A DNA stretch of 64,000 nt from Bdellovibrionales bacterium (GTDB taxonomy: Bacteria; Bdellovibrionota; Bdellovibrionia; Bdellovibrionales; JAUICD01), in assembly GCA_965203875.1 (NCBI GenBank), contig OZ241914.1:333209-397208 (forward strand). Direction: 5' to 3'. How positions within the stretch are numbered: position 1 is the stretch's first letter; every line of letters begins with the position of its first letter. The notes under the pieces were generated by a model that saw only the letters and a list, made by a program, of their open reading frames with translations, was not told the origin of the DNA and searched no databases. The position numbers and the translations under genes are program-made. Positions 3,407 through 49,140 of the stretch are shown here, piece after piece.

Positions 3407-3706
3407 GATATCTTCCAGTGTTGGTTACACTTTGGGTTGTATTGGGTTTGTCTGCTCTATCAGATAACTATTTAAAAGGACAACTGAAATACCTGATTTA
3501 CACAGTTCAATATTAACTAGCCCTGCTCTACTCATAGCACCTCCAGACCAGCAAATAAAATCAGAATTAACCACATATGTCAATAAAACGAAGGTTAGAG
3601 CCTTTGTTTTGATTAAGTGCCTATCTAGCTTTGCTAAGAGCTTTGGCTTAACCGCTCTGCTATCTAGCATTTGTCAAAACTTTAGGGCCTTAAGTTAATT
3701 TTTAGT

Positions 3707-4705
3707 CTATCTTGAATATCTACAATGGTTGTCTGATGAGAATATGCTTCCTCTAGCCATTTGTTTGTTGGCAAATGAGATACTCACTGTCGTGTTGTTA
3801 CAGTCTTCCAAATCTTCTGGAGTACCTCTTACTCTGACTTTGAAATTGGCAGTTCTTTCTGAGAATAACTCATATATTATTTCAAATTCCCTACCATCAT
3901 TTACTCTTGTAAATCTGCCCTCTTGAATAATCCAAGGTTCTAGGTCATGAAGATGAGTCATATCGTTATGCCATATGTATGCGTCTGTTTCTGCATAGGA
4001 ATCCTGTGTTGGACTATGGTCTAGAAATATATTTAATCCCAATCTTAAATTTTCTACCGCTCTTCTACAGGACTGACTTCCAATAACAAATTGTGCGTGC
4101 AATCCACTCCATCTAGTGTTAGCACACACCCCTAGAAGTTCTAAAAAGTTATCAAATACATCTTTGTTTGTGATTCTTATTGTCTCTCTTCCACTTGGAT
4201 TTGCTGTTGTAAGCGACATTCCATTCCAACTACTTCCTACAAACTTTCCGCTATTGTCACATCCATATCTGTGTTGTGCGCTTGTATAATTGTTGTCATA
4301 TCGCCCATCTCTATTGCCATAATTCTGTCCATAACCATTCCTATAATCATAGTTTTGTCCATAGTTATTCCTATTACCGTAGTTCTGCCCATAACCATTT
4401 CTATTATCGTAATTTTGACCGTAACGGTTTTGTTGACCCGGTGACTGATTATAGGATCCTCGTCCTCTGTTGTTGTTTTTATAATTTTGGCAATAATCTC
4501 CACCGTAAAACGGACCAACATATCTGCTACCCTGCCTTCCACAGTTGGTAACACTCATCGCCAAGATAGCGGCAGCTACCACAAAGTAGGTTATGTTGAG
4601 TTTATTTGCAAATTTACTACGGCTTGAGGTAGGTGCTGATCTACCAGATGCTAATTTTGCTGACTTTTTAGCTTTTAACTTAGTTTTTAACCTTCTGAAT
4701 CCCAT
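3707..4705 (-). CDS. Membrane-anchored or secreted protein with an Asn/Gly/Tyr/Gln-rich decapeptide repeat region and a Cys-containing C-terminal domain, unknown function
   Basis: 332 aa. Basic N-terminus, hydrophobic segment YFVVAAAILAMSVTNC, then RYGQNYDNRNGYGQNYGNRNNYGQNYDYRNGYGQNYGNRDGRYDNNY, then a roughly 190-aa non-repetitive domain. Confidence 0.7.
   Translation of the reverse strand: MGFRRLKTKLKAKKSAKLASGRSAPTSSRSKFANKLNITYFVVAAAILAMSVTNCGRQGSRYVGPFYGGDYCQNYKNNNRGRGSYNQSPGQQNRYGQNYDNRNGYGQNYGNRNNYGQNYDYRNGYGQNYGNRDGRYDNNYTSAQHRYGCDNSGKFVGSSWNGMSLTTANPSGRETIRITNKDVFDNFLELLGVCANTRWSGLHAQFVIGSQSCRRAVENLRLGLNIFLDHSPTQDSYAETDAYIWHNDMTHLHDLEPWIIQEGRFTRVNDGREFEIIYELFSERTANFKVRVRGTPEDLEDCNNTTVSISFANKQMARGSIFSSDNHCRYSR
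4286..4432 (-). repeat. Imperfect 30-nt tandem repeats encoding (N/D)(R/Y)RNGYGQNYG decapeptides
   Basis: About 5 successive YGQNY units are visible in the protein, and 30-nt periodicity is visible in the DNA. Confidence 0.85.
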
Positions 4706-4745: not shown

Positions 4746-5471
4746 TTAAGCCTCTTTTTTAGGTGGAATTTTGAAAAATCTATTGTTTACAAATGCTGCT
4801 AAGCCAAATAATACAGCCAATACACTAACTAAGGTTGAAAAATAATAGTCTCCTCTATAATCTCCTCTCAAACTTTCTATCCATATCCTGCTAATACCGT
4901 ACATGATTAAATAGGCAAAAAAACGGCCTTCTACCTTATTTTTTTCCATATACAAAATTATTGTCATTATTAAAAAACCCGAAAATGAGGAGTATAACTG
5001 CGTGGGATGAATGCTTACATCGCCTTTAGTAATTGCAAAAATGCTAGAAGTTTGTTTTCCAAAACAGCATCCGGCCAGAAAGCATCCTAGCCTTCCCAGC
5101 CCATAGCCTAAAGGTATAACAGGTGCAAATAAATTCAAAAAAATAGAGATTTTTTGCTTCCTTAGGGCCAAAAATCCCCAGCCTGCTATCAAGGCAAATA
5201 TAAATCCTCCATAGAATACAAAACCGCCCTGATATATTTTTAGAATATTGAGAGGATTTTCGATATAGTATACAGGATATTCTATTATTGCATGAGATAT
5301 TCTTGCACCAATCAATCCAGAAACTATTAATACTAAAGATAAATCTAGAGCATCTTTTGCAAGATTAATCTTTTTAGATCTTCGGTATACCCATACTATG
5401 CATATACATAAGCTTATAGACATTACCAACAGGTAGGAAGAAAGATGTAGAGAGCTTAAAATGGGTGCCAC
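4746..5471 (-). CDS. Prolipoprotein diacylglyceryl transferase paralog (divergent, Cys-substituted signature)
   Basis: Polytopic, 241 aa. GLGRLGCFLAGCCFGK aligns to the Lgt signature GRxGNFxNxE, and HPTQLYS is conserved. A GTG start follows the TAA of the upstream lgt directly. Confidence 0.7.
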   Translation of the reverse strand: MAPILSSLHLSSYLLVMSISLCICIVWVYRRSKKINLAKDALDLSLVLIVSGLIGARISHAIIEYPVYYIENPLNILKIYQGGFVFYGGFIFALIAGWGFLALRKQKISIFLNLFAPVIPLGYGLGRLGCFLAGCCFGKQTSSIFAITKGDVSIHPTQLYSSFSGFLIMTIILYMEKNKVEGRFFAYLIMYGISRIWIESLRGDYRGDYYFSTLVSVLAVLFGLAAFVNNRFFKIPPKKEA

Positions 5472-6311
5472 TTAATTAATACGTTCCTCTATAGGATGTT
5501 TAATTCTAATATGTAGCAAAATTACTCCTGACAAAATCATGATGAAACATAATATTTGACCCATACTAAAATATTGTAGAAAAAACCCAAGCTGATTATC
5601 CGGCTGTCTGAAGAATTCTATGACAAATCTAAAAACTCCATAGATTATGAGATATGAAGTAGATATTATTCCTGTTCTTAGCCACTTGTTACTTTTTGAA
5701 CTCTTAAAAAATCCTTTTTTAATTTCACTTTTTTCTATTATTACTAAGATAAGGAATATCAATATTCCTTCCGATAAAGCTTGATATATTTGAGAAGGGT
5801 GCCTTGGCATACTGTCCACCATGGGGAAAACTACCGCCCAGGGAACATCTGTAACTCTACCTACCAATTCTCCGTTGATAAAATTACCAACTCTTCCTAA
5901 GGCTATTCCAATACAAGCTGCAATAACTACGTTGTCCATGATATGAAAGAATCCGACATTTAACTTTTTAGCCACCAGCACACTGCTAACAATAAAACCT
6001 ATAGCAGCTCCGTGATACGATAGTCCTCCTTTCCAAACAGCAAATATCTCTAGAGGATTTTGTATGTAATTCCAGTAGTCATATACAAATACATATATTA
6101 GCCTTGCACCTACAATCATACCAATCATCAAATAAGTAATAAGCAGTCCAATTTGGTCAGGATTTAGAGCGAACTTTGATTTTTTCCATCTGCTTACAAG
6201 AATTAAATATCCTATGAAAAATCCCAGTACATACATCAACCCATACCATCTGATCTGAATAAATCCGAATTTTATAAGAGTAGGATCTAAATCGTGTACA
6301 AAATATTGCAT
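5472..6311 (-). CDS. lgt: Prolipoprotein diacylglyceryl transferase
   Basis: Canonical GRVGNFINGELVGR signature, HPSQIYQALSEG, GGLSYHGAAIG; 279 aa polytopic. Confidence 0.9.
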   Translation of the reverse strand: MQYFVHDLDPTLIKFGFIQIRWYGLMYVLGFFIGYLILVSRWKKSKFALNPDQIGLLITYLMIGMIVGARLIYVFVYDYWNYIQNPLEIFAVWKGGLSYHGAAIGFIVSSVLVAKKLNVGFFHIMDNVVIAACIGIALGRVGNFINGELVGRVTDVPWAVVFPMVDSMPRHPSQIYQALSEGILIFLILVIIEKSEIKKGFFKSSKSNKWLRTGIISTSYLIIYGVFRFVIEFFRQPDNQLGFFLQYFSMGQILCFIMILSGVILLHIRIKHPIEERIN

Positions 6312-11715: not shown

Positions 11716-14226
11716 TATCTTTAGGGATTCTTTTACAATATTATCAGAGTTTATTCCGTGGTAAGAATATATGTCACTGGGTCTTCCACATTTGGAATGC
11801 TTTCTTGTAGCAAGTGTGCTAGCCTTTACTCCTAGTACAGAACCTGCATTATCTAAAAGACCTGGCTCACCATCATGTACGGTAATTATAGGCACTTCTT
11901 TTTCCATTAGATGAAAAAACTGTGAAAAATTATTTTCACAAGCTAAGTTGCCTAATAATAAATCGGGACTTGTTACTACAGATACATTTGCATAAATTCC
12001 ATACTTTAATAATTCCAAAGATGCAGTGATAACTTCAGTTGTTGGAGATCCCATAGATAACAGATTAATTACATTATCTTCTGGTTCATATGCATGGTAG
12101 TTAGAAAAGTGTATCAAGTTATACCCGCCTTTTAATACATCATGCTTGATTGTATTTAAGATGGTAGCATTATCTAAACTTTTAACAGTTGGTTCATAAG
12201 CAAAACTGCCATTTTTTTCTGTACTCAAAGTAACGGTTTCTGTTTTAAATCTGCTTTGTTTTTTTAAATGCTTTAAAAAATCTTTTTGATCTACACCTCT
12301 TGTAGTGGCTCTGATTAACACACCTGTACGAGCTTGATTATCTCCTGTAACATGTTTTTTTAATGTATCTACAAAAATCCAATCCATCTCCTGACAAAAA
12401 AATGGTTCCCATGTGATTTGGTTAGGGATTTGAAAATCTGATTTCCAACCATGTTGTGCTCCTTCAGGCGATAAGGTTATTCCAGAAGGCGTGCCTACTA
12501 GGATAAAATTAGAATCCCAATACAAGTTATAAAAATATTGATCATGTGCTCTTTTGATAAAAAAATCATACACAGACATTATAGGTATTATCGGAACACC
12601 CAATATCTCTTTTATCTTACCAAAAGAGCCGACACAGCTCATTGTGTTGGCTTCTGTTATTTCAAATCTTAAAAATCTGTTTATCTTATTTTTGTCAGGC
12701 ACTAGATGCGGAGACTTAGGGTCTCTTACTTTCAGATCGGTTTCTAAGTCATTTACCTTACTTCCATACACTTTTCCATCCATAGATGGATTTAAGTTTG
12801 TAGAAGTTCCAACATCTGGAGACATTATAGCCAACAAATTGGCTATGGGTTTAAATGCAAGCTCATTTTTTTCCACTTTTGTATTCGCAATTCTAGTGAG
12901 TTTGGCTATTAGCTGACCAAGCATCCACTGTGTATGAGGGAAAATTGCAAACTTTAGATTGATATCTAAACTATCTGGAATGTTATCCAATTTAATTTTA
13001 TTTTTATCCTTTAGGTTTGATACCTTTTTAAAATCATTTAGTAGTTTCTTGTGTCTTTTTTGTAAAAACGAATATTCATTTGTTCCGGATTTGAAAAGTT
13101 CAAACGCATTTTGTATATCTTCATTTTTTTTCAAAGCTTCGACTTCTTTTTTATCAGGTAGCGTATTGTGATTTGAACATATGGCCTTTGATTCAAGGCC
13201 CCACCCTTTGATAGTGTGTGCAATTATTATAGTTGGCTTATCTGACCTTTTACTTTCAATTAAACATTTAATTATTTGTTCAAAATCATGACCTCCAAAG
13301 TCATTTAGACCTCGTATTAAATCTTTATCACTAACCCTATCTAAAAATGGCTTTATCTTGGAATTTTTTTCTAATATTTTTTTTCTCACTTCAGATATGT
13401 TGGAAGATAATAAAATGGCCTGTAGTTCAAAATCAGATAATTGTTCTTCTAGTAAATCTTTAAACTCTCCACCTTGCTTAAATAATTTTTTTCTAAAACT
13501 TCCATGTTGAAGCATAATACAATTCCAACCATTGGCTTTAGCGGTATCATATATTCTTTTACTATCGTTTCCATATACGTCCTGATCAATAACTCTATGT
13601 CCATCCAAGCTTTGCCTGTTATAATCTATTATCCATGTTACATTATTTAATTTTCTTTCGGCAAAATCAGGCATTGCTTCCATGAGCGATCCTTCTCTAA
13701 ATTCTGAATCACCAATCAAAGCCCAAAAGTGAGCATCTTTAGGAGTTTCAAAGCCATGTGCTTCAACAAATTTGTAAGCTAAGGCCAAGTAGCCTAAATT
13801 AACAGGAGGTATACCTACTGTTCCTGATGGAAGAAATCCAGCATGATCCGGATCATACTTTGAATGGTAAGACTGAAATACATAATCATTTTTAGAAAAA
13901 GCTCTTAAATTATGCATAGCTTTTTTAGCTTCATTTTTATTTATTGGATTTAAATTTTTATCCAAAAATAAGTTTAAAAGATAATTGTAAGAATGATCCG
14001 TAGGCGAAGCATGAGGTTTTACTGCCATGTAATCTTGGCCTGATTTTACTACTAAATGCAATGCTCCTAATAAATGTAAGCAACTAGATGAAGCTGCAGG
14101 ATGTCCACCTACTTTAGGATCGCCTTTTTGCTTATCTTCTCTGTTATTTGCCAGATAGATCATCTGGGTAGCTAGGTATAAAGCTCTTCTAGCTATAGAG
14201 TTTAATAGGCTAATGTCATATTCCAT
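11698..14226 (-). CDS. 2-oxoacid (pyruvate) dehydrogenase E1 component, homodimeric AceE type
   Basis: 842 aa. KVGGHPAASSS and the ThDP motif GDSEFREGSLMEAM...NNVTWIIDYNRQSLDG resemble AceE. There is no adjacent E2 gene. Confidence 0.75.
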   Translation of the reverse strand: MEYDISLLNSIARRALYLATQMIYLANNREDKQKGDPKVGGHPAASSSCLHLLGALHLVVKSGQDYMAVKPHASPTDHSYNYLLNLFLDKNLNPINKNEAKKAMHNLRAFSKNDYVFQSYHSKYDPDHAGFLPSGTVGIPPVNLGYLALAYKFVEAHGFETPKDAHFWALIGDSEFREGSLMEAMPDFAERKLNNVTWIIDYNRQSLDGHRVIDQDVYGNDSKRIYDTAKANGWNCIMLQHGSFRKKLFKQGGEFKDLLEEQLSDFELQAILLSSNISEVRKKILEKNSKIKPFLDRVSDKDLIRGLNDFGGHDFEQIIKCLIESKRSDKPTIIIAHTIKGWGLESKAICSNHNTLPDKKEVEALKKNEDIQNAFELFKSGTNEYSFLQKRHKKLLNDFKKVSNLKDKNKIKLDNIPDSLDINLKFAIFPHTQWMLGQLIAKLTRIANTKVEKNELAFKPIANLLAIMSPDVGTSTNLNPSMDGKVYGSKVNDLETDLKVRDPKSPHLVPDKNKINRFLRFEITEANTMSCVGSFGKIKEILGVPIIPIMSVYDFFIKRAHDQYFYNLYWDSNFILVGTPSGITLSPEGAQHGWKSDFQIPNQITWEPFFCQEMDWIFVDTLKKHVTGDNQARTGVLIRATTRGVDQKDFLKHLKKQSRFKTETVTLSTEKNGSFAYEPTVKSLDNATILNTIKHDVLKGGYNLIHFSNYHAYEPEDNVINLLSMGSPTTEVITASLELLKYGIYANVSVVTSPDLLLGNLACENNFSQFFHLMEKEVPIITVHDGEPGLLDNAGSVLGVKASTLATRKHSKCGRPSDIYSYHGINSDNIVKESLKILEIYS

Positions 14227-19113: not shown

Positions 19114-20553
19114 ATGTATTTCAAAGATCTAAATCTTTCAGATGAATTATTTCAAGGCATTACTTCAAATGGCTTCGAGGAGTGTACTCCTATACAGGCT
19201 GCTACCATCCCAGACTGTTTAAAAGGCAAAGATATATCAGGGCTTGCTCAGACTGGCACTGGCAAAACTGCTGCATTTTTGGTTCCTTTGATGGAGAGGG
19301 TTTTTATGGGAAAGCTTGGAAAAAATGGGTTTTCCAATTGGCAGAAAGGTCAATTTTGTCTGATTATGGTCCCAACAAGAGAGCTTGCAGAGCAAGTATA
19401 CCAAGATTTTTACTCTTTTAAGGGTGCTACAGTTCTGGATGCTGTCCAAATCTATGGCGGCACCACTTATGACAGACAAAACAAAATGATCAAACAGGGG
19501 GTTGAATTTATTATAAGTACCCCTGGTAGACTTATCGATTTGTATAAATCTCATTCTTTAGATCTCAGACAATGTAGGGCAATTGTTTTTGATGAAGCTG
19601 ACAAAATGTTTGATATGGGATTCAAAGATGACATGCAATTTTTATTGCACAGAATTCCTAGAAATAGACAACTTATGTTTTTTAGCGCAACCATGGATTT
19701 TTCTGTTATCAACATGGCTTATAAGTTTGGGGCATCACCTATAGAAATAGATCTAAGCAAAAAGCACGTAAGAACACAAAATGTAGATGACTACATATAC
19801 CATATAGGAGAATCACAAAAACCACAGTATCTACTGTCTGTGTTGAACAAACTTAATCCTAAACAGACAATAGTATTTAGTAACTTCAAGCACAAAATTG
19901 AAGTGCTGGAAATGTTTTTAAATAAAAATGGCATTACTTCAACTGGTATTTCTAGTCTTTTGACACAGCAGCAGCGTAAAAGAGTCATGGATCAGTTTAG
20001 AAACCACCCAGATTTTAATGTGCTGGTAGCAACTGATGTGGCAGCTAGAGGATTAGACATAGAAAATGTAGATCTAGTAATTAACTATGAGCTTGCTGAT
20101 AACCCAGAAAATTATATCCATAGAATTGGAAGAACAGGTAGAGCTAAAAAAATTGGCGTTGCCTGTAGCCTGGTCTCTGATTTAGATGTTCCTAACTTAC
20201 TTAGAGTTGAAGAATACCTAGCAAGTAAACTAAAAACACAATGGCTTGAAAAATCTGATCTAATAGAAGATTTTGTAACTTTAGATAAAGTAAAACAAGA
20301 TATAGCTAAGAAAAAATATAAACCTACTAAAAAAACTAAAAAGCCTAAAACCAGACCTAAAAAGATATCTAAAAAAACATCTAAAGCAGCATCGTATAAA
20401 CCCAAACAGGTTACTAAATCTTTTGAAGATAAAAGGATAAATAAAAAGGTAAAGAAAAAAGTGAAGGTAAGAAAGGGAAGAAGTGGGAAGAGTAAAAAAG
20501 GTGTTTTGTCTTTTATTGATAGACTAAAAGGTCTGACAAAATGTTTTTATTAA
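19114..20553 (+). CDS. DEAD-box ATP-dependent RNA helicase with Lys-rich C-terminal tail
   Basis: Q motif region, AQTGTGKTAAF, VFDEADKMFDMGF, SAT, HRIGRTGRA. Confidence 0.95.
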   Translation: MYFKDLNLSDELFQGITSNGFEECTPIQAATIPDCLKGKDISGLAQTGTGKTAAFLVPLMERVFMGKLGKNGFSNWQKGQFCLIMVPTRELAEQVYQDFYSFKGATVLDAVQIYGGTTYDRQNKMIKQGVEFIISTPGRLIDLYKSHSLDLRQCRAIVFDEADKMFDMGFKDDMQFLLHRIPRNRQLMFFSATMDFSVINMAYKFGASPIEIDLSKKHVRTQNVDDYIYHIGESQKPQYLLSVLNKLNPKQTIVFSNFKHKIEVLEMFLNKNGITSTGISSLLTQQQRKRVMDQFRNHPDFNVLVATDVAARGLDIENVDLVINYELADNPENYIHRIGRTGRAKKIGVACSLVSDLDVPNLLRVEEYLASKLKTQWLEKSDLIEDFVTLDKVKQDIAKKKYKPTKKTKKPKTRPKKISKKTSKAASYKPKQVTKSFEDKRINKKVKKKVKVRKGRSGKSKKGVLSFIDRLKGLTKCFY

Positions 20554-20700
20554 AACCGAAGGGTTTTAAGCAATTCTTTTGTAGGTTACCTTGAATGTTA
20601 GGCAACATTTTCAATAAGTGCACACCTAGCTTCACTTTCGGCCTCCGGCCTATTCGTTACGCTAGTGCACACTTATTGAAAACGAAGACCTTTAATATAA
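20553..20700 (-). repeat. Nested-hairpin extragenic repeat, copy 1 (sense on minus strand, downstream of recA)
   Basis: The minus strand reads TAAAGGTCTTCGTTTTCAATAAGTGTGCACTAGC...GGCCGGAGGCC...GCTAGGTGTGCACTTATTGAAAATGTTGCCTAACATTCAAGGTAAC. It is homologous to the copies at 28941, 32679 and 49141. Confidence 0.7.
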
Positions 20701-20714
20701 AATGAAAACCCTTA

Positions 20715-21782
20715 TTACTTTTTTGCTTCTTTGGTAGTGATATTAGGCTTAGCAGCACCAGTACCACCGTCCACAGACTGTATACCATGCATTATTAACA
20801 GTTTGTTTCTTAAAAGATTCAGTACATTAGTATGTTTCTTTAAGTAAGCTTTAGCACCTTCTCTACCTTGAGCAATCTTACTTCCTTCATAACTGTACCA
20901 GGAACCTGCCTTTTGAACCAAGTTCTTAGACACAGCAAGATCCAATATATCACCTTCTATAGAAATACCATCGCCATACATCAAATCAAATTCCACCTTA
21001 GCAAATGGAGGAGCCAATTTATTTTTTACAACCTTAACTACAGTTTTACACCCTATGGCAGTATCACCTTCCTTTATTACAGAAGATCTTCTGACATCAA
21101 GCCTGACAGAAGAATAAAATTTAAGTGCGTTTCCACCAGTAGTGGTTTCTGGATTCCCAAACATAACACCTATTTTCATTCTGATCTGGTTTATAAAAAC
21201 TACAGTGGTATGTGATCTATTAATGGCAGCCGTTAGTTTACGTAAAGCCTGAGACATTAACCTAGCCTGCAAACCCATATGGCTATCGCCCATCTCACCT
21301 TCTATCTCTGCTTTAGGGGTCAAAGCAGCCACAGAATCTACAACTAGAATATCTACACCACCAGAGCGTACCAAAGTTTCTGTAATCTCAAGTGCTTGCT
21401 CACCTGTATCAGGCTGAGAGATCAACATATCTTTTGTTTCAACACCCAATTTTTTTGCATAAGCCAAATCTAAAGCATGCTCTGCATCTACAAATGCAGC
21501 CGTACCACCATTTTTTTGACATTGAGCTATTATCGACAATGCCAAAGTAGTTTTACCAGAAGATTCAGGTCCGTAGACTTCCACGATTCTACCTCTAGGA
21601 ACACCTCCAATGCCAAGTCCAATATCTAACGAAAGAGAACCAGTAGATATAGTAGAAATATTTTGATAAGAAGTTTTCTTTTCCCCCAACTTCATTATAG
21701 AGCCTTTGCCAAATTGTTTTTCTATAGTGCTTATAGCTACTTCTAAAGCCTTTTTTCTTTCTGTTCTATTAGTCTCCAACAT
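20715..21782 (-). CDS. recA: Recombinase A
   Basis: 355 aa. [12 protein letters not shown] Walker A; highly conserved RecA sequence throughout. Confidence 0.97.
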
Positions 21783-27709: not shown

Positions 27710-28942
27710 ATGAATATTAAAAAAAATGTTTCTATTAGAGAACGTGGTGTGGCACTGCTCATATCTTTGTTTAGTATTATGATGCTTAGCTTTATTGCTG
27801 TTGAAGTTAGTTATGATACTAGCATTGACTACATTATATCGAGCAGAGAGTACCATAAACTCAGAGCTTATTATGCCGCAAAGTCTGGAGTAGAGTTATC
27901 GTTACTTAGAATATTGATGTACAAAAAAGCACAAAGTCAATTTAAACAACAGTTATCTGCTAATCCTAGTTTAGTTGATACAATATGGAATTTTCCATTT
28001 TCTTGGCCTGTTGATATACCAGAAGATTTGGCTGGTGTAGATCAGCAAGGTATAACAGAAGTTTCCAAGGAATCATTGTTAGAAGACGTGCAGTATCAAA
28101 CTATGATTCAAAGTGAAGGTGTTAAAATAGATATAAACTCACTTGCGGCTGCTAATGAATCTTTAGCCAATTCTATAAAGGTGCAGCTTGCTAGCTTATT
28201 TAGAAATTATATAGACTCGTTAGAAGAATCAGATTCAGAAATAGAAGATGTGGATTATGAAAGAGTGATAGAAAATATAAAGGATTGGGTGGATGCAGAT
28301 GATATGTCATTTGATAATAGAGATGAAAAGGCTCTGTATGAAGATCCGAATTTACCTTATAATAGGGCATTTAGAACTTTGGAAGAATTAAGGATGGTGA
28401 GTGGTGTTACAGATCGAGTTTTTAATTTTCTTAAACCTAGTATAACGGTGTATGGAGTGGGTGGTGTAAATCCAAATAAAGTAAGTAAGGTGGTATTAAG
28501 ATCAGTTCATTCTACTATCACTGATGAGATAATAGATCGAATGAATGAGCATTTTGAGCAGTCTGGCCCTTTTAAGAACGAAGATGATTTTTTTGGTTTT
28601 CTATCTAGGTTTAATGTAAATGTTAATGAAATTAAGGATTCTGGCATACGGTTATATTTTTCTGAAGAAGGTGAGACAAATTTTTTGATAAAGAGTGTTG
28701 GAAAGTCTGGGGTTGTGAACAAAGAGGTACAAGTTGTGGTCTATGACAGAGATAAAGTTAAAAGTATACTAGGAATTTCTAATAGGCAGGCGGCTGTTGG
28801 AACTTCTACTACATCTACAACTTCTACTACTGCCAGTGGTGGGAAAAGTGATGAAGTTAGTCCTGCTGCCTCTACGACAAGTACGGTCCCTTCGAAGGTT
28901 CCTCAGGGTAGACCTGAAATAATATATTGGTATGAAAGCTAG
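27710..28942 (+). CDS. Type II secretion minor pseudopilin GspK-like protein with Thr/Ser-rich C-terminal extension
   Basis: N-terminus RERGVALLISLFSIMMLSFIAVEV; KIDINSLAA, IKDWVDADD, FRTLEELRMVSGV...VNPNK match the GspK architecture. No other gsp genes in the window. Confidence 0.7.
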   Translation: MNIKKNVSIRERGVALLISLFSIMMLSFIAVEVSYDTSIDYIISSREYHKLRAYYAAKSGVELSLLRILMYKKAQSQFKQQLSANPSLVDTIWNFPFSWPVDIPEDLAGVDQQGITEVSKESLLEDVQYQTMIQSEGVKIDINSLAAANESLANSIKVQLASLFRNYIDSLEESDSEIEDVDYERVIENIKDWVDADDMSFDNRDEKALYEDPNLPYNRAFRTLEELRMVSGVTDRVFNFLKPSITVYGVGGVNPNKVSKVVLRSVHSTITDEIIDRMNEHFEQSGPFKNEDDFFGFLSRFNVNVNEIKDSGIRLYFSEEGETNFLIKSVGKSGVVNKEVQVVVYDRDKVKSILGISNRQAAVGTSTTSTTSTTASGGKSDEVSPAASTTSTVPSKVPQGRPEIIYWYES

Positions 28943-29047
28943 AGGTTTTCAATTTTTAATAAGTGTATACAGCGAAACGACAAGGCCAAAGGCCTTAGTG
29001 TAGCTATGTATACTTATTAAAAATGTTGCCCAACGTTCAAGGTAGAC
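28941..29047 (+). repeat. Nested-hairpin extragenic repeat, copy 2 (starts at the gspK-like stop codon)
   Basis: TAGAGGTTTTCAATTTTTAATAAGTGTATACAGC...AAGGCCAAAGGCCTT...GCTATGTATACTTATTAAAAATGTTGCCCAACGTTCAAGGTAGAC. Confidence 0.7.
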
Positions 29048-29060
29048 TCCAACAGACTTT

Positions 29061-29088
29061 CTAAAGGTTTTCAAATTCTATCAACTGC
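29061..29088 (+). repeat. Solo left end of the same repeat family
   Basis: CTAAAGGTTTTCAAATTCTATCAA closely matches the start of copy 3 (CTAAAGGTTTTCAATTTTATCAA). Confidence 0.4.
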
Positions 29089-29128
29089 TACAGCTACAGA
29101 TCATCATGCAAGCTACCAAACAAAGAGT

Positions 29129-29161
29129 TTGACAAAAATTGGGGGGGGGGGGGGGTAACAT
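29129..29161 (+). promoter_or_regulatory. Candidate sigma-70 promoter TTGACA-(AAAATT+G15)-TAACAT with an overlong 21-nt spacer
   Basis: The AGTTTGACAAAAAT context is shared with the paralog promoter at 33696, where the spacer is 16 nt and lacks the G tract. Confidence 0.4.
29141..29155 (+). repeat. Homopolymeric G15 tract
   Basis: Read directly: 15 consecutive G in an AT-rich intergenic region. Confidence 0.95.
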
Positions 29162-29213: not shown

Positions 29214-30179
29214 GTGTTTTTAAGTAATTTTCTAAAATTAGGTTTGTACAAGTCATCTTGTATATTGTTTTCATGTTTGTTCTTTGTATCGTGTAATACT
29301 GTTAGTAGTAAGCCTACAGAGATTGTATCTAATGCTGGTAGTAGAAAGATTGCAAGTGCTAGTGCTGCTGCTATGGCTGTAAATTCTAGTGCTTTTTTAG
29401 CAATGCAAGCTTGTCCTGTACTGGCTAGTATTCAGTCTAGAATCCCATCATGGAGGGGTACTCCTGATCGTGATGAACATATTGGTCGAAGACTTAAGAA
29501 CTTCATTACAAATAATTACCCTGATCGTGATGAACATATTAACCGCTACAACGCAGAATACGTTATGAATATGCTACAAGAAACAGACGGTCAGGGTAGA
29601 ACCTTGCACCAGAGGCTTATGTTGGAGTTATCTTCTAATAGTGATTGTTTAAGTCGTATAGGTGATCTAAGAGAAAACATATGTTTTTACAGAGAGTATA
29701 GCGAAGCTTGCGATGCTTTGCATAAGCTTGACAAGCTAGACGGGGAAACTATTATACAAGAGTTTGAAGAGTTTGCAGGAGCTTCTATAGAGTCTATCGA
29801 TCCTAGTCAGTTAGTAGGTAAACTTGATGGGTTTATTCAAAGCAGAGGTTTGATTGCCAGATTCTTTCATAGGGAACCAGTGTTATACAAAGAACCGTCA
29901 TCACGAGAGGAAGAATTAGAACAATTAGAAGCAGAAGCGAGATCGCAGGAAATGAATTTTAGAACATCTCTTATAACAGCCCCTATAATACTGGCACTAC
30001 TGTCAGGAATACATAAGGCTGCAGCGACAACTGCTGGGGCAGCAGCAGTGGGAGCGGTGGGAACGGTAGGAGCAACAGTAGTAACACTGGCTATGGTTGG
30101 TGGTGTAGTTTGGCTTGCAACTGGTGGATTTGACAAGAGATTGAAAAATAGACTTAGACCTAGAGCAGAAAATCCATAA
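29214..30179 (+). CDS. Lipoprotein family A, copy 1: N-terminal lipobox, Cys-containing middle domain, Ala/Gly/Val-rich C-terminal membrane segment, Arg-rich tail
   Basis: GTG start 6 nt after AAGGGGG. LYKSSCILFSCLFFVSCNTVSSKPTEIV is paralogous to 33759..34568. C-terminus AAATTAGAAAVGAVGTVGATVVTLAMVGGVVWLATGG...RLRPRAENP. Confidence 0.75.
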   Translation: MFLSNFLKLGLYKSSCILFSCLFFVSCNTVSSKPTEIVSNAGSRKIASASAAAMAVNSSAFLAMQACPVLASIQSRIPSWRGTPDRDEHIGRRLKNFITNNYPDRDEHINRYNAEYVMNMLQETDGQGRTLHQRLMLELSSNSDCLSRIGDLRENICFYREYSEACDALHKLDKLDGETIIQEFEEFAGASIESIDPSQLVGKLDGFIQSRGLIARFFHREPVLYKEPSSREEELEQLEAEARSQEMNFRTSLITAPIILALLSGIHKAAATTAGAAAVGAVGTVGATVVTLAMVGGVVWLATGGFDKRLKNRLRPRAENP

Positions 30180-31967: not shown

Positions 31968-32558
31968 CTAGAGTGTTTCAAAATGGACGTTAGTATTTTT
32001 TACAATGGCTATTGGGTAATGTTGTGGCAGAAACCAGGACAGGGTTTTTAATATACCTGTGTGTTCTGATTGTGGCGGATCTCCTAGTGAGTTGGCACAG
32101 AAGCATATGTCGAAGGTGTTTTTATTGTTTTTTAGTATAGAGAATTTAGCTTGATATACTCCCTGGTCTAAGAAAAATTGTCTTAGTATGGATCTCACAT
32201 AGCTTGGAATCGCAAGCTTTTGTGCTGTGTTAATGTTGAAAGGTTTAGCTAAAAATCGCCCTGTTTCTTTAAAGAGCCATATCATGCCGTAGGTAAAAAT
32301 AAAATCTGGAAAATCTTTATCTGGATTTAGTACAATTCCGACACCTTTGTTGTGTGCCCAGCTAAGAAGCTTAGTTGCAGGTTCTTTAGATGATTTGCTG
32401 GACGATATTAGCATGTATGGCATTCCATCCGATCCTTGTTGCGGAAGATCATGTGCTATGCTGATGTTGCATTTTGGGAACATATTTAGAAAACTGTGAT
32501 CCCAATTTTTATCTCTATTCTTATCTTCTATTTCTAGGTGTTTTAGAAACTCATTCAT
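31968..32558 (-). CDS. Hypothetical cytoplasmic protein
   Basis: 196 aa with no signal peptide and no recognisable motif. The SD-like AAGGG is supplied by the end of the adjacent repeat element. Confidence 0.55.
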   Translation of the reverse strand: MNEFLKHLEIEDKNRDKNWDHSFLNMFPKCNISIAHDLPQQGSDGMPYMLISSSKSSKEPATKLLSWAHNKGVGIVLNPDKDFPDFIFTYGMIWLFKETGRFLAKPFNINTAQKLAIPSYVRSILRQFFLDQGVYQAKFSILKNNKNTFDICFCANSLGDPPQSEHTGILKTLSWFLPQHYPIAIVKNTNVHFETL

Positions 32559-32645
32559 TAAAGCCCTTCGTTTTTGATAAGTATATATAATGAAATGACA
32601 AGGTTATAAACCTTTAGCACGGTTAAACATATTGCTGATAGTAAA
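32559..32645 (+). repeat. Degenerate copy of the nested-hairpin repeat (array member a)
   Basis: TTAAAGCCCTTCGTTTTTGATAAGTATATATAATGAAATGACAAGGTTATAAACCTTTAGC aligns with copy 2 (AAAGGTTTTCAATTTTTAATAAGTGTATACAGCGAAACGACAAGGCCAAAGGCCTTAG). Confidence 0.45.
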
Positions 32646-32678
32646 AAAACCGCAGCCGCAAGGCTGGTTGTGCAACGT

Positions 32679-32790
32679 CTAAAGGTTTTCAATTTTATCA
32701 AATATTTGATTAGCAAAGCGGCAAGTCGGAAGGCTTAAAGCGTAGCTAAGAGAATATTTGGTAAATGTTAACCAACGTTCAAGGTAGACT
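32679..32790 (+). repeat. Nested-hairpin extragenic repeat, copy 3 (array member b)
   Basis: CTAAAGGTTTTCAATTTTATCAAATATTTGATTAGC...AAGTCGGAAGGCTT...GCTAAGAGAATATTTGGTAAATGTTAACCAACGTTCAAGGTAGACT. The arms differ from the other copies but stay complementary. Confidence 0.7.
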
Positions 32791-32803
32791 ATGAAAGAAT
32801 TTA

Positions 32804-32885
32804 CATTAAAGCCCTTCGTGTAGTAAAACTTCTGCTAACGGAATGCAAGACCGGAGGTCAAAACTAAGCCTTCTCATTTTTATAT
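32804..32885 (+). repeat. Degenerate copy of the repeat (array member c)
   Basis: Starts with CATTAAAGCCCTTCGT, an exact 16-nt repeat of 32556-32571. It contains the central mini-hairpin GACCGGAGGTC. Confidence 0.35.
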
Positions 32886-33695: not shown

Positions 33696-33723
33696 TTGAC
33701 AAAAATGTAAGAGAGGGTATTTT
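33696..33723 (+). promoter_or_regulatory. Candidate sigma-70 promoter TTGACA-16 nt-TATTTT of lipoprotein family A copy 2
   Basis: Consensus -35, a 16-nt spacer and a TATTTT -10-like hexamer, about 35 nt upstream of the ATG at 33759. Confidence 0.45.
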
Positions 33724-33758
33724 TGTTTATCGGTCTAAAGTTAAATCAAGGGGGCAGA

Positions 33759-34568
33759 ATGTCTTTTAGACAATTTTTTGATTTAGGTTTATATAAGTCA
33801 TCTTGTATATTGTTTGCCAGTTTATTTTTTGTATCTTGCAACACTGCTAGTAGTAAACCCACAGAGATTGTATCTGCTGCAGGAACTAGGAATATTGCTA
33901 GCTCTGCCATAACTAATATTAATGCTAGTGCATTTTTGATGATGCAATATTGTCCTGTGGTTACTCGCATTCAATCTAGAGTCCTAGAAGCTGGTGGCAG
34001 TCTTAACGGTGAACAGATGATGGCTTTAATGCAAGAAAAAGATTTTACAGGCAGAACTTTACAACAAAGACTTATGTCAGAATTGTCTTCTAATAATGAT
34101 TGTATTAGACGTGTTGCTGAGCTTAGAGAAAATATATGTCTTTACGGAGAGTATAGTGAGGTTTGCGAAATTTTATATCAACTTGAAAAGCTAAAAACAG
34201 AAGATATTGTACAGGAGTTTGAGGAGTTTACGGGTGCCTCTGTAGACTCTATTGATCCTAGCCAGTTGCCTGGTAAAGTTGAGGCATTTGTAAACTCTAA
34301 CAGTACTTTCTTTGGTAGAATAAATAATACACTAAACAATAATAAACATATTATGATTCCTGCTGTTATTGCATTAGTATTTATAACTGTAGCAGCAGCT
34401 TTACCAATAATTCCAGCAGTAGGGGCAGCATTAGGTTATGGTGCAGTAACAGCAGCTTCGGTACTAACAGATGTGGCGGCTGTAACCGTAATTAGTACAA
34501 TTGGAATGTCGTTGGTTGGCTGGTTAATTTATAGAAAAGATGTAAGAAACAGAAGAAGACCTAACTAA
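33759..34568 (+). CDS. Lipoprotein family A, copy 2
   Basis: ATG 5 nt after AAGGGGG. MSFRQFFDLGLYKSSCILFASLFFVSCNTASSKPTEIV is shared with copy 1, as is RENIC.Y.EYSE.C...EFEEF.GAS.DSIDPSQL. Hydrophobic AGV-rich C-terminus ending RKDVRNRRRPN. Confidence 0.75.
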   Translation: MSFRQFFDLGLYKSSCILFASLFFVSCNTASSKPTEIVSAAGTRNIASSAITNINASAFLMMQYCPVVTRIQSRVLEAGGSLNGEQMMALMQEKDFTGRTLQQRLMSELSSNNDCIRRVAELRENICLYGEYSEVCEILYQLEKLKTEDIVQEFEEFTGASVDSIDPSQLPGKVEAFVNSNSTFFGRINNTLNNNKHIMIPAVIALVFITVAAALPIIPAVGAALGYGAVTAASVLTDVAAVTVISTIGMSLVGWLIYRKDVRNRRRPN

Positions 34569-34637: not shown

Positions 34638-35363
34638 TCATTCATTAAAGATGCTTGGTTTAATGGTTCCTTTTAACTCAATTTTGTGCCCGTATAGGCT
34701 GCCAATATTGTCATGGTGTTGGCCATTGTCTTCGTTTGCACTATCACCACTACCATAATATAATTTGAATCCTTTTGTGAAAATATAGTTGTACAAAGCA
34801 CCCAGCTCTATGGGTCCTACATCTACGTCAATTCCTGCTCCAACTTGTCCGGCATGAGACATAGCCCATTTTTCTTGTTCTTCATTAGGTTCATTTAGTC
34901 CTATGTTGTTGAACGCTAATCCATAATCAGACGTAACATAAGGGGTCATAAAAGAAAAGATGTCATCAAAATGCCAGTTTCCTCCAACAAACCAAATAAG
35001 TTTGTTTTGATTTCCTATGTCTTCTGCCGACTCCCCAGTACCTTGAATATTATGTTTAAAATAGGTAATGCTTGTGTCAAAAGATGGGCCCTTATAGGGT
35101 TTGTACTCACTGGTTAGTGTGAACGAAGGAAGTAAAGTTTCTTTTAAGTCATATTCTCCTGCTGCTAGTGTTGAGGTTTCCCCTTGGTTTGAAACGTTGA
35201 GTTTATCGTATAGGACCGTGCCGAGTGAAAGAGCTATACTCCAACCGTAATCGTCGTAATAAAATACTCTGTCGTCATAATAGTCTCTGATTTGGGCTTT
35301 AGCATTTGATACAAAAAGGCAAATGATCAATACAGCAACCGATCTATAACCAATTTTTTTCAT
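34638..35363 (-). CDS. Small outer-membrane beta-barrel protein (OMP2), tandem paralog of OMP3
   Basis: Signal ...LFVSNAKA/QIRDYYDD. Alternating strands (WSIALSLGTVLY, LIWFVGGNWHF, GAGIDVDVGPIELGALYNY). GGAGG SD. Confidence 0.75.
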   Translation of the reverse strand: MKKIGYRSVAVLIICLFVSNAKAQIRDYYDDRVFYYDDYGWSIALSLGTVLYDKLNVSNQGETSTLAAGEYDLKETLLPSFTLTSEYKPYKGPSFDTSITYFKHNIQGTGESAEDIGNQNKLIWFVGGNWHFDDIFSFMTPYVTSDYGLAFNNIGLNEPNEEQEKWAMSHAGQVGAGIDVDVGPIELGALYNYIFTKGFKLYYGSGDSANEDNGQHHDNIGSLYGHKIELKGTIKPSIFNE

Positions 35364-35395
35364 AACTTTCCTCCATACATGTCCTAAAGATTGTA

Positions 35396-36160
35396 CTAGT
35401 TGTTAAGGATACTTGGTTTAATGGTTCCTTTTAACTCAATTTTGTGCCCACCTAGGCTATCAAAATCAAAGCCATATCCTTTCAAAGCTGCTCCTTCGCT
35501 GTTAGGTATTTGCACTGGTGCAGGCAGTATCAGCTCTAGTTCGTATCCATTTGTTAGTACGTAGTTATACAAAAGGCCTAGCTTTACAGGGCCTACGTTT
35601 ATATCAACTCCTGCTCCAGCTTGGGTGGCCAGAGACAGTGACGAGTCGTCTAAAAGTTCCACATTTTCACTTTCAAGATTCACAAAGTTGTAGGCTAGCC
35701 CAACATCAGCAGTAACATAGGGAGTTAAACGAGAGACCACTTCATCGAAGTTATAATTTCCTCCAACAAACCAAATAAGCCTACTTGAACTACCTACATC
35801 AGTACCTTCTTCTGATAAATCGTGTGAAAAATAAGTAAGACCTGTATCAAAAGATAAGCCCATGTAAGGCTTATACTCTCCAGTCACCATAAACGACGGA
35901 AGTAGAGTTTCTTTCAATTCCAGCGTTCCTTTTGCGGAGATGTTTGACAAGGCATTGACTATAGTTGATGATGGAGCAGTCACTTCTTTGAATGAAAGAT
36001 AGTAATCTTGTTCTCCGTACAGGACAGTGCCCAGCGATAGAGCTACACTCCAACCGTAGTCATCGTAATAAAACACTCTGTCGTCATAATAGTCTCTGAT
36101 TTGGGCTTTGGCATTTGATACAAAAAGACAAACTCCCAGTAGCAACAATAACCTTTTCAT
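35396..36160 (-). CDS. Small outer-membrane beta-barrel protein (OMP3)
   Basis: MKRLLLLLGVCLFVSNAKA signal. GAGGGGG SD before the ATG at 36160. N- and C-terminal blocks are nearly identical to OMP2. Confidence 0.75.
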   Translation of the reverse strand: MKRLLLLLGVCLFVSNAKAQIRDYYDDRVFYYDDYGWSVALSLGTVLYGEQDYYLSFKEVTAPSSTIVNALSNISAKGTLELKETLLPSFMVTGEYKPYMGLSFDTGLTYFSHDLSEEGTDVGSSSRLIWFVGGNYNFDEVVSRLTPYVTADVGLAYNFVNLESENVELLDDSSLSLATQAGAGVDINVGPVKLGLLYNYVLTNGYELELILPAPVQIPNSEGAALKGYGFDFDSLGGHKIELKGTIKPSILNN

Positions 36161-36443
36161 AGATCCCCCTCTTAAGCTGCGTCCCAAAGCCAGTTTTTAC
36201 ACGATCTAATAAAAATATCAATACTAAAGCTTGCCAGCTACGTTGTGCAGTGCTCCAGTTTTGTAGCTGTGCACCTAAGCTAGTTGAGCCATTTAATAAA
36301 ATCTAAAAAACTTACGAAACTACTAAGATCATGCAGCCGAAGGGCAATAAAATTCTTGTTACTAAAAAATACAGCTCAGGCGTAAGCCGGCCAACCTGTG
36401 ACCTCTATGCTCTTGTAAGGATAAACAGCTTCGTACGAAGACT

Positions 36444-39532: not shown

Positions 39533-39676
39533 CAACAATATTACCCAATATTAGCCAATATTACCCAATATTAGCCAATATTACCCAATATTAGCCAATA
39601 TTACCCAATATTAGCCAATATTACCCAATATTAGCCAGTATTACCCAATATTAGCCAATATTACCCAATATTAGCT
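39533..39676. repeat. Tandem array of about 14 decamers alternating TTACCCAATA / TTAGCCAATA (6.5+ copies of a 20-mer)
   Basis: Read directly. Perfect copies except one A>G at 39638. The array ends 28 nt before the start codon of the ATPase gene. Confidence 0.95.
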
Positions 39677-49135: not shown

Positions 49136-49140
49136 TTTAC

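Follow-up and report, generated by a model that had tools for sequence, protein, structure and literature searches.

Repeat units in the window

The DNA analyzed here is a 64,000-nucleotide stretch of contig OZ241914.1 (positions 333,209 to 397,208) from a Bdellovibrionales bacterium, referred to below as the window, and the subject is a family of noncoding repeat units of about 125 nt that recurs within it. The organism is an uncultured associate of marine invertebrates with a small genome (1.2 to 1.6 Mb) and a GC content of about 34%. The gene content is that of a Gram-negative bacterium, and genes of the window include recA, recX, alaS, ileS, lgt, lspA, mlaDEF, and tamA/tamB, together with a gene for a protein like component K of type II secretion systems (T2SS-K-like) and genes for the 2-oxoglutarate dehydrogenase complex. 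Units or their remnants stand directly behind recA, tamA, and the T2SS-K-like gene. Each full unit encodes a long hairpin, which is under selection on the sense strand, and the position and orientation of the units are tied to gene ends.

An initial annotation of the window had listed four copies of the repeat. These exist as described, and a covariance model built from them (R1), run unfiltered over every position of the window, recovered all four at 106 to 139 bits (E values of 1e-25 to 1e-34). The next-best matches were degenerate copies at 3570-3696 (-) and 32556-32675 (+), with 29 and 20 bits, respectively. A second model built from 25 copies (R2) gave the same inventory. Thus, the copies behind the claim of "4 full copies plus fragments" were real, but the list was incomplete and lacked, among others, the tandem units in 32556-32885. 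The units and remnants in the window, with stem arms given as left/right and open reading frames (ORFs) by coordinates, are the following.

3575-3696 (-), degenerate unit c7; R1 29.4 bits, R2 37.4 bits; alignment to the consensus, z of 14
3697-3722 (-), 3'-block-like remnant ATTCAAGATAGACTAAAAATTAAC, compared by eye with the consensus CGTTCAAGGTAGACTACAAACAGATTTGC
20551-20569 (-), 5'-block-like remnant TTAAAACCCTTCGGTTTTA, a small hairpin AAAACC-CTTC-GGTTTT outside unit c1; overlaps the stop of the convergent DEAD-box helicase gene (19114-20553, +)
20573-20697 (-), full unit c1, stem AATAAGTGTGCACTAGC/GCTAGGTGTGCACTTATT, mini-hairpin GGCC-GGA-GGCC; R1 138.8 bits, R2 127.1 bits; fold of -46.6 versus -33.3 kcal/mol for the opposite strand; in the 3' flank of recA (ORF 20715-21782, -) and in the same orientation as recA
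20698-20714 (-), 5'-block remnant TAAGGGTTTTCATTTTATAT, directly after the recA stop TAA (20715-20717) and followed by c1
28937-29058 (+), full unit c2, stem AATAAGTGTATACAGC/GCTATGTATACTTATT, mini-hairpin AAGGCC-AAA-GGCCTT; R1 122.4 bits; its first triplet TAG (28940-28942) is the stop of the T2SS-K-like ORF 27710-28942 (Pfam)
29059-29080 (+), solo 5'-block remnant CTAAAGGTTTTCAAATTC, directly 3' of c2; 29064-29078 matches with 2 mismatches
32556-32675 (+), degenerate unit c5, first of a tandem trio; R1 20.2 bits, R2 19.9 bits
32677-32800 (+), full unit c3, middle of the trio, stem ATCAAATATTTGATTAGC/GCTAAGAGAATATTTGGT, mini-hairpin AAGTC-GGAA-GGCTT; R1 117.7 bits; fold of -35.1 versus -18.0 kcal/mol for the opposite strand
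32805-32885 (+), truncated unit c6; alignment to the consensus, z of 7.4 versus shuffles
49124-49254 (-), full but divergent unit c4, more degenerate and with a different 3' block; R1 106 bits; its first triplet TAA (49249-49251) is the stop of the Omp85/TamA-like ORF 49249-51573 (Pfam)

The four full copies are 69 to 77% identical to each other and differ mainly in the stem arms. There are exactly three occurrences of the motif AACRTTCAAGGTA in the 64 kb, all within repeat copies. The 5' block AAGGTYTTCRWTTTT, with up to 2 mismatches allowed, occurs 12 times versus 4.75 expected, and none of 100 shuffles reached 12. Folded as RNA on the named strand, c1 to c4 gave -46.6, -35.9, -35.1, and -30.9 kcal/mol (z scores of -6.2, -4.4, -4.9, and -1.3), and three of the four beat all 200 shuffles.

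The annotated interval of the first copy, 20553-20700, contains unit c1 but also takes in the separate small hairpin at 20551-20569, a remnant similar to the 5'-block variant TTAAAGCCCTTCGTTTTT seen at 32559-32576. In the tandem trio of 32556-32885 (degenerate c5, full c3, and truncated c6), the TAA of c5 is directly adjacent to the start codon of ORF 31968-32558 (-), which reads CAT on the plus strand, and c6 keeps the 5' block and the apical domain (GACC-GGA-GGTC) without the right arm and 3' block. Unit c4 occupies the entire spacer up to the convergent ORF 48710-49135. Unit c7, whose stem complementarity is partly lost, lies behind ORF 3707-4705 (-) in the same orientation, and the remnant at 3697-3722 provides the final codons and the TAG stop (3707-3709) of this ORF. 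Behind c2, the interval 29059-29145 scored a z of only 1.5 against the family consensus, and no recognizable unit follows the remnant up to about 29140.

Copies in related loci and searches elsewhere

Other loci (L124 to L130) were reached via a lineage-specific multicopy protein family and contigs encoding its members. The results that follow therefore describe the 64-kb window and parts of the same or sister genomes, not a whole genome. About 85 kb of the same or sister genomes held 20 further copies, mainly in head-to-tail arrays, and the window, L126, L129, and L130 together gave 25 strong model matches. With R1, L126 yielded one full unit and one variant unit, and L129 yielded at least 14 units in six arrays. 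The arrays of L130, which belongs to a sister assembly, are orthologous to those of L129. No R1 match was found in L124, L125, or L128.

Assembled reads suggest a larger number. Logan contigs of the runs containing the genome pile up on units (word depths of 211 versus 13 and of 145 versus 3.7); contigs end inside units, and in others, linkers of 9 to 14 nt connect the 3' end of a unit to the 5' end of a different one. The pile-up of depth, together with the breaks and joins, indicates tens of copies and frequent tandem arrangement genome-wide. Because contigs end inside units, the units break short-read assemblies of this organism. Runs and strains from sponge metagenomes also contain unit sequences.

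Searches farther afield were negative. R1 found no unit in the loci of two relatives (L002 and L003, 34 kb) whose TamA proteins are 58 to 61% identical to that of the window, and the relative with 61% identity has none in 22 kb and none behind tamA, which ends ...FSIGMF-TGA. A blastn search of the unit against 72,556 plasmids and 50,697 phages gave no match, nor did a pattern scan of 185,579 GTDB species genomes with a 20-base unit motif. A looser 16-base pattern matched JGI metagenomes at chance level only, with no match confirmed by the covariance model, and the covariance model found nothing in 80 recA loci of other bacteria (1.37 Mb). Two queries for paralogues present only at NCBI also came back empty. 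Rfam 15 gave no match at gathering score in the window; on the copy-rich L129, at an E value of up to 5, it returned only two tRNAs and subthreshold noise such as miRNA precursor models (24 to 28 bits versus thresholds of 93 to 101). The earlier statement that the repeat was not recognizable as a described family is in line with these Rfam results in both the window and L129.

Anatomy of the unit

The anatomy was derived from 23 distinct copies (a 25-copy alignment). The unit had been put at roughly 110 nt, which proved too short: it spans about 120 to 127 nt, with a conserved tail of about 15 nt (CTACAAAAGAATTGC-like) following GGTAGAC. Of 20 units, 17 start with TAA, internal units of arrays included, and TAG, TGA, and TAT start one each. 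A pyrimidine-rich 5' block, (A)GGYCYTTC(G/A), follows in two flavors, (A)GGTYTTCAATTTT or GGCCCTTCGTTTT. The stem of about 24 to 26 bp is free in sequence but retains complementarity. Its outer part consists of U4/A4 plus a covarying pair (CG...CG, CA...UG, or CG...UG), its middle part is unconstrained in sequence, and its inner part is conserved (UAGC/GCUAG with a bulged G) and belongs to the apical domain. Above it, this domain has a GAA/GAA-type internal loop and then a 2-bp helix that covaries (AC/GU, GC/GC, or GU/AC). The central GC mini-hairpin covaries as initially proposed (GGCC/GGCC versus GACC/GGUC), with a loop that invariably ends in A. Downstream of the stem is the 3' block, AAAA(U/C)GUUNNNCAACGUUCAAGGUAGACU (..CAACGTTCAAGGTAGACT), and then the tail, of the type ACAAACAGAUUUGC, which extends to the next TAA. 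For the small hairpin proposed within the 3' block, C-G, U·G, and U-A states are indeed seen, yet about 7 of the 23 copies have it broken, which makes it the weakest part of the proposed architecture. The variant unit in L126 keeps both end blocks around a wholly different, GC-rich stem, GCCACAGCC/GGCUGUGGC.

The palindrome is an internal one, with the conserved tail outside it and confined to the 3' side. The extreme ends form no inverted repeat: the 5' end (TAAGGCCCTTCG...) does not match the reverse-complemented 3' end (GCAAATCTGTTTGTAGTCTACC...). The GC content of the copies ranges from 0.32 to 0.44.

Several simple identities were rejected. There is no conserved ORF in the unit: a small peptide could be read from the 3' block of c2 (ATG-TTG-CCC-AAC-GTT-CAA-GGT-AGA... 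to the next TAA), but the ATG is ACG in many copies, and neither frame nor length is kept. A tRNA, transfer-messenger RNA, or other known RNA was dismissed, with ARAGORN finding none in the window and Rfam giving no family. The unit is also not an intrinsic terminator, because the U run is on the 5' side and the A run on the 3' side of the stem in both orientations. A terminator scan picked no full unit and found 9 terminators versus 7.8 expected, which is no enrichment. Separately, a terminator-like hairpin, CAGCCTTGCGGCTG followed by the T run CGGTTTTTTT, lies on the minus strand at 32666-32653 in the 3' part of c5, and this decayed part of c5 may serve as a terminator for minus-strand genes. 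Unit c4 holds a block, AAAAAAGCCGAAGC, that is similar to this hairpin.

Compensatory change and the strand that folds

The stem arms were said to differ between copies yet remain complementary. In the 25-copy model-based alignment (23 distinct rows), which is fitted to the modeled structure and leans toward it, 91.6% of the pair cells formed standard pairs. Shuffling the partners gave 78.0 ± 0.9% (0 of 500 shuffles reached the observed value), and sliding the partners by 1 to 3 columns gave 34 to 39%. Both sides changed in 18 of 30 pairs. The covariation was strong, with 111 double-change cells versus 38.6 ± 6.2 in shuffles, although these shuffle statistics overstate independence because the copies are related by descent and recombination. 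At least 10 different middle-stem sequences were present, each self-complementary. It is the slid-partner control and the plain sequences that leave little doubt that the stem has changed in a compensatory manner, as the initial annotation had claimed.

The substitutions also reveal which strand folds. Transitions in Watson-Crick pairs should give G·T or A·C equally often, yet the paired cells contained 44 G·T or T·G and only 13 A·C or C·A (binomial P = 5e-5), which indicates that the pairing of the named strand is protected. A general C-to-T bias is excluded as the cause of the G·T excess because among unpaired columns C/T polymorphisms (13) are fewer than G/A polymorphisms (26). The named strand out-folds its complement in 18 of 22 copies, by a mean of 5.7 kcal/mol. 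This asymmetry means that a symmetric DNA cruciform is not the conserved form. Thus, of the earlier suggestion of a folded RNA or cruciform DNA, the conservation of structure stands, whereas the cruciform is disfavored by the wobble counts. The folded form is an RNA of the named sense or that single DNA strand. An apparent pairing between the 5' block and the proximal part of the 3' block (columns 10:118, G-C 12 versus C-G 8) was attributed to linkage between two subfamilies rather than to selection because three recombinant copies break it.

Placement at gene ends

In 10 of the 12 arrays, the first unit is on the same strand as the gene or tRNA directly 5' of it, a context that suits the original suggestion of a "REP/MITE-like element or 3'-UTR module" (REP, repetitive extragenic palindrome; MITE, miniature inverted-repeat transposable element; UTR, untranslated region). 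The first triplet of the unit is the stop codon of the T2SS-K-like and TamA genes in the window, of a UPF0102 gene in L126, of the S-adenosylhomocysteine (SAH) hydrolase and HATPase genes in L129, and of the Chalcone_3 gene in L130. A unit or remnant lies 0 to 4 nt past the stop of recA, an M24 peptidase gene, and the L129 Chalcone_3 gene. Native C termini are intact: SAH hydrolase ends ...HYRY*, and TamA ends ...FSIGMF*, the same as in the relative that has no unit. Two ORFs run into units, with the glutaminyl-tRNA synthetase ORF of L126 reading 14 codons in and ORF 3707-4705 of the window ending in the 3'-block-like remnant. The array behind the L129 tRNA at 13816-13889, with three units beginning 4 nt after the CCA end, indicates that units are not restricted to protein-coding genes. 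The other tRNA gene in L129 is at 5078-5164.

The orientation of a unit is fixed with respect to its TAA, which places units on the sense strand of the upstream gene. Along the DNA, orientation changes in the order -,-,+,+,- in the window and +,-,-,-,+,- in L129. These flips within a few kilobases indicate that orientation follows the local genes and not the replichore.

Integron attC sites, the structure-specific recombination sites that mark gene cassettes, are defined through structure, not sequence, and share several properties with the units. They are imperfect palindromes (57- to 141-nt class) that start at or near the stop of the preceding ORF in the same orientation, with conserved ends, a variable center, and a strand-specific, single-stranded fold with bulged bases, comparable to the bulged G of the units. 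The inverse core of attC has the consensus RYYYAAC, and GCCTAAC in c1 resembles it. However, the units have no terminal GTTRRRY partner for such an inverse core and no R''/R' core pair. The genes in front of them are not a cassette array but housekeeping genes in mixed orientation (recA, tamA, glnS, SAH hydrolase, map, and a tRNA), units stand in tandem without genes between them, and no integrase was found in the loci read. An attC identity is close to refuted by this gene content.

Junctions, arrays, and decay

TAA or TAT follows each of the five units that stand singly or at the end of an array. Because internal units also start with TAA, the TAA appears to be part of the junction and not merely the stop codon of a gene. 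On either side of these five units there is a TAA (in one case TAT) within a shared flank of 3 to 13 nt, and it may belong to the unit. The flanking repeats of single units were TAA, TTCTAAAG, and AGATTATCTATAG; the longest, at the L126 unit designated L126a, share 13 nt that include the unusual TAT.

Comparison of the sister assemblies shows that arrays change. Between the stop TAA of the L129 Chalcone_3 gene and the resident unit are an extra unit and a 22-nt partial unit, whereas the same resident unit is fused directly to the Chalcone_3 stop in L130. L130 6761-6881 is a crossover of two adjacent L129 units, the stem arms of which no longer match, and L130 12525-12585 is a unit precisely without its hairpin. 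The identity of the L129 and L130 flanks itself ranges from 84 to 99%. At four junctions, a full unit with TAA at its start comes after a partial 5' block of 14 to 22 nt that ends in ..AAT or ..TAT; the arrangement behind recA recurs in L129 and L130. Nested insertion was rejected as a model for these junctions because the expected remainder of the split unit is absent after the inserted unit. Decayed copies are common and include c5, c6, c7, and the remnants.

The TA-rich flanks raise the possibility of a classical cut-and-paste MITE, mobilized by an IS5- or IS630-like DDE transposase with duplication of TA, TAA, or YTAR upon insertion. The small size, AT richness, lack of coding capacity, and extragenic location of the units fit a MITE, as does the presence in L129 of a unit that is absent from L130. 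All units are flanked by TA(A), 13 of 19 5' junctions are YTAR, and the single units c4 (CTAA/CTAA) and c1 (TTAA/TTAA) have matching flanks. Nested, clustered insertions are common for MITEs (PMC10969869). However, terminal inverted repeats are lacking, with the palindrome internal and a conserved tail of about 20 nt outside it on one side. Strand-asymmetric pairing would not be expected if inverted repeats were recognized as double-stranded DNA, nor would one expect arrays that are strictly head-to-tail or an orientation that depends on the upstream gene. No DDE transposase was seen in the loci read. We regard this origin as very improbable.

The strand-specific hairpin and fixed orientation would be accommodated if the units were nonautonomous derivatives of HUH/Y1 elements, either IS200/IS605 or REPINs (paired REPs) mobilized by a REP-associated tyrosine transposase (RAYT). 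The top-strand hairpin would then be the recognition structure of the transposase, with insertion in one orientation 3' of TAA or YTAA without true target duplication. The hairpin is G·T tolerant and has a conserved bulged G in the right arm (GCUAG-G-C), TAA precedes 17 of 20 units, and GTAG is present in the conserved 3' block (GGTAGAC). The loops of the mini-hairpin are often C-GNA-G triloops, which are very stable in DNA. Because the 3' end of each unit is also followed by TAA, each unit would be a new target, which would explain the head-to-tail arrays. Against this, orientation flips with the local gene every few kilobases instead of being tied to replication, as insertion into the lagging-strand template would predict. 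GTAG is not at the foot of the hairpin, its position in REPs, and the units have one central hairpin rather than two subterminal ones. The 13-nt shared flanks of L126a look like the product of duplication or recombination and not like a target plus an element end. Furthermore, no Y1/HUH gene was present in the gene tables or Pfam scans read (the 64-kb window and about 100 kb of other loci). Derivation from such elements is improbable.

The placement of the units could instead reflect a host-functional 3'-UTR module rather than a selfish repeat, selected behind many genes for mRNA 3'-end stability, RNase III processing, or slowed termination and spread only by duplication and gene conversion. 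Sense orientation in 10 of 12 arrays and fusion to stop codons are consistent with such a role, as is the tolerance of G·U only on the strand of transcribed sense. The stem base lies 7 to 8 nt behind the stop codon, inside the 15-nt range of REPs that affect translation in Escherichia coli (PMC12306157). The apical domain is conserved in sequence (UAGCGRARYG ... AGCUAGG), as expected of a protein- or RNase-binding site, and with canonical terminators not enriched in this region, a different 3'-end device could be of use. However, many decayed or truncated copies are tolerated, including c5, c6, c7, the L130 recombinant with a broken stem, and the L130 unit without a hairpin. The number of units per site differs between sister assemblies, and units are absent behind the tamA of a relative and from the 34 kb of two relatives. 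Redundant arrays of two to four units are difficult to explain functionally, and two arrays are antisense to their neighbors and one is behind a tRNA. A host module as the primary identity of the family is therefore unlikely in our judgment, although it deserves more weight than the mobile-element derivations above.

Comparison with known intergenic repeats

The family is most readily compared with REPs and their assemblies, bacterial interspersed mosaic elements (BIMEs) and REPINs. Like these, the units are extragenic, structured, multicopy, clustered, and mostly located behind genes, presumably inside transcription units, with a hairpin that is maintained by compensatory change and a folded form that is strand-specific. 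A large share of the REPs in E. coli is found no more than 15 nt from the stop codon, with consequences there for translation and the fate of the mRNA (PMC12306157). REPs are only 20 to 40 nt long (REPINs of about 100 nt are two inverted REPs) and have GTAG or CGTC at the foot of the hairpin, whereas the unit described here is one stem of about 25 bp with a conserved apical domain and asymmetric 5' and 3' blocks. In the units, GTAG is confined to the 3' block and lies about 20 nt beyond the stem on its 3' side. The units share no sequence similarity with REPs, and no RAYT was found in the portion read (the window and the loci of about 100 kb). BIMEs alternate in orientation, in contrast to the head-to-tail arrays of this family.

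Enterobacterial repetitive intergenic consensus (ERIC) sequences, also called intergenic repeat units (IRUs), are bounded by terminal inverted repeats with a TA duplication. At about 127 bp they are nearly equal in length to the units. They too are imperfect palindromes in transcribed intergenic regions and at the 3' ends of genes, with orientation-dependent effects on transcripts (PMC10969869), but they appear unrelated in sequence, belong to a different lineage, do not form head-to-tail arrays, and are not reported as fused to stop codons. The Correia elements of Neisseria (CREE/NEMIS) are noncoding and 100 to 155 bp long, are cotranscribed with their neighbors, and form long hairpins that are cut by RNase III (PMC10969869). 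They also have TA flanks, but their 26-bp terminal inverted repeats and occurrence in both orientations contrast with the asymmetric termini and gene-tied orientation seen here. BOX elements of Streptococcus pneumoniae likewise have conserved end modules and a variable or repeated middle and cluster with other intergenic repeats (PMC10969869); however, they vary in the number of boxB modules within an element, whereas here whole units repeat, the sequence appears unrelated, and the host phylum is a different one. Indirectly, the absence of matches among the plasmids, phages, and species genomes searched bears on these named families.

In summary of these comparisons, the family fails the strict definitions of a REP, a MITE, an IS200/IS605 derivative, and an attC site and works most like the 3'-UTR palindromes of the REP/ERIC type. 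The family itself is previously undescribed, but the kind of element, a REP/ERIC/MITE-like bacterial intergenic repeat, is already familiar. What sets the family apart is base-exact fusion to stop codons, together with arrays that run head to tail and a clear asymmetry between strands.

Proposed interpretation: a spreading repeat cotranscribed as a 3'-UTR hairpin

The interpretation that we favor, and consider somewhat probable, is that the family is a lineage-specific, noncoding, nonautonomous repeat of the REP/ERIC/MITE-like kind that is cotranscribed as a 3'-UTR hairpin. Its restriction to one lineage, the copy-number differences between sister assemblies, the degeneracy of many units, and the redundancy of the arrays argue for a spreading and decaying repeat rather than a fixed regulatory site. 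Selection on the sense-strand hairpin and the tie to gene ends hold at the same time, and this interpretation is the simplest one to accommodate both sides.

As the sister assemblies show, arrays grow by the addition of units at a TAA junction and shrink or are reshuffled through recombination between neighboring units and loss of the palindrome. Addition would take place in one orientation. In a compact genome with very short 3' spacers, the TAA of a stop codon would be the likeliest harmless hit. Units would be cotranscribed with the upstream gene as a 3'-UTR hairpin, and the hairpin would be kept because it is selected or recognized as a sense single strand, either RNA or the displaced nontemplate DNA strand. 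By analogy with REPs, the hairpin would probably be a barrier to 3' exonucleases, a substrate for RNase III, and possibly a brake on terminating ribosomes. REP-like action is probable because the base of the stem is so close to the stop codon. E. coli REPs at most 15 nt from a stop are described as stalling ribosomes and affecting mRNA (PMC12306157, citing Liang et al. 2015), and Correia and ERIC repeats within transcripts are cut by RNase III and RNase E (PMC10969869). On these precedents, the hairpin probably affects mRNA 3'-end stability and RNase III cleavage and possibly termination.

A number of observations weigh against this interpretation, in addition to the lean of the alignment toward the modeled structure and the relatedness of the copies described above. 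Two arrays (window 32556-32885 and L129 6100-6454) are antisense to both neighboring genes; the latter lies within a segment of about 1.2 kb that is repeated along with a paralogous lipoprotein-family gene, and this array may have been carried along by segmental duplication. The variable flanks fit no single transposition chemistry, and recombination rather than transposition could explain them. The extreme ends do not carry inverted repeats, which sets the element apart from a textbook MITE. The gene tables of about 100 kb of sister loci and 30 Pfam-scanned ORFs of the window contained no transposase, RAYT, or IS200-type gene. The runs containing the genome, including those listed as RNA, look like DNA (flat depth and contigs of 10 to 26 kb).

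A bolder version of the spreading-repeat interpretation is that the repeat homes to stop codons. In this scenario, a TAA-recognizing insertion or recombination chemistry that acts in one orientation would place new copies preferentially on or just behind stops, where they would automatically be transcribed as 3' UTR. We consider this conjecture unlikely. If it were true, homing to stop codons would be a safe-harbor strategy for a selfish element in a compact genome, and, with the hairpin 7 to 8 nt from the stop, dozens of housekeeping genes could have their termination and mRNA decay tuned by it. The specificity for the sense strand might point to the nontemplate strand, displaced during transcription, as the substrate.

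Structured intergenic repeats such as REP, ERIC, and Correia elements shape mRNA stability, translation, and genome plasticity. Knowledge of them comes almost wholly from a few cultured Proteobacteria, whereas the family described here is from an uncultured, small-genome associate of invertebrates. It offers a clean case, with varied stems that compensate, a measurable strand asymmetry, and base-for-base fusion to stops, as in SAH hydrolase (...HYRY*) and the Omp85 protein (...GMF*). Thus, it provides a natural data set for asking in which form, RNA or single-stranded DNA, such repeats come under selection and how a repeat spreads through a compact genome without breaking genes.

Host genome and neighboring observations

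The RecA of the window is encoded identically on contig_1 (1.24 Mb) of the European Nucleotide Archive (ENA) assembly ERZ25067941, and other proteins of the window are also found on a 1.6-Mb contig in NCBI and ENA. The runs containing the sequence come from two coded host organisms, and sponge and marine metagenomes share 6 to 9% of its words. Among 185,579 species genomes, the nearest RecA proteins are 73 to 74% identical (metagenome-assembled genomes of Pseudobdellovibrionaceae), followed by mixed phyla at 61 to 72%. With no identity above 74%, the lineage is unrepresented among those genomes, and its placement is tentative. Elsewhere the genome encodes SWIB, Fic, ankyrin, and reprolysin-like proteins and a type II-B CRISPR-Cas locus. 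The last, at L125 1-6555 (ERZ25067941 contig_1, about 1.196 to 1.203 Mb), is type II-B-like, with a Csx12-type Cas9 (1516 aa), Cas1, Cas2, and Cas4.

The protein family through which the additional loci were reached is lineage-specific, 250 to 330 aa in length, and without a Pfam match (window 29214-30179 and 33723-34568; L124 to L130; P0020 to P0045). A lipoprotein signal (..LFFVSC) and a hydrophobic anchor at the C terminus characterize its members, in which the N-terminal half is conserved and the C-terminal half varies. There are at least 26 relatives across three or four assemblies, often adjoining repeat arrays, and they are possibly variable surface proteins. The family was considered as the mobilizing enzyme of the repeat and was rejected in that role because the lipoprotein signal and C-terminal membrane anchor mark a family of surface or membrane proteins, not a nuclease. 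Upstream of the member at 29214-30179, by about 60 nt, a G15 tract (29141-29155) separates TTGACA (29129-29134) from TAACAT (29156-29161), and in one contig of run X3 the tract is 2 nt shorter. As read from the sequence, this is the arrangement of a putative slipped-strand, phase-variable promoter.

Other repetition and duplication in the window was also observed. Seven nearly perfect 20-bp tandem units (CAATATTACCCAATATTAGC, 98% matches) at 39536-39675 immediately precede the GTG start codon of an ORF for an AAA_16 ATPase (39704-40912), and this array could be iteron-like or protein-binding. Within ORF 3707-4705 (-), which has no Pfam match, 4311-4425 contains 3.8 copies of an in-frame 30-bp repeat. 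Adjacent paralogous ORFs of 241 and 263 aa without a Pfam match are present at 34638-36187 (-), with DNA segments (D3, D4, and D6) that are 70 to 91% identical. Two Lgt paralogues lie next to each other at 4746-5471 and 5472-6311 (-), with lspA and ileS following them; it is unusual for a reduced genome to carry lgt in duplicate.

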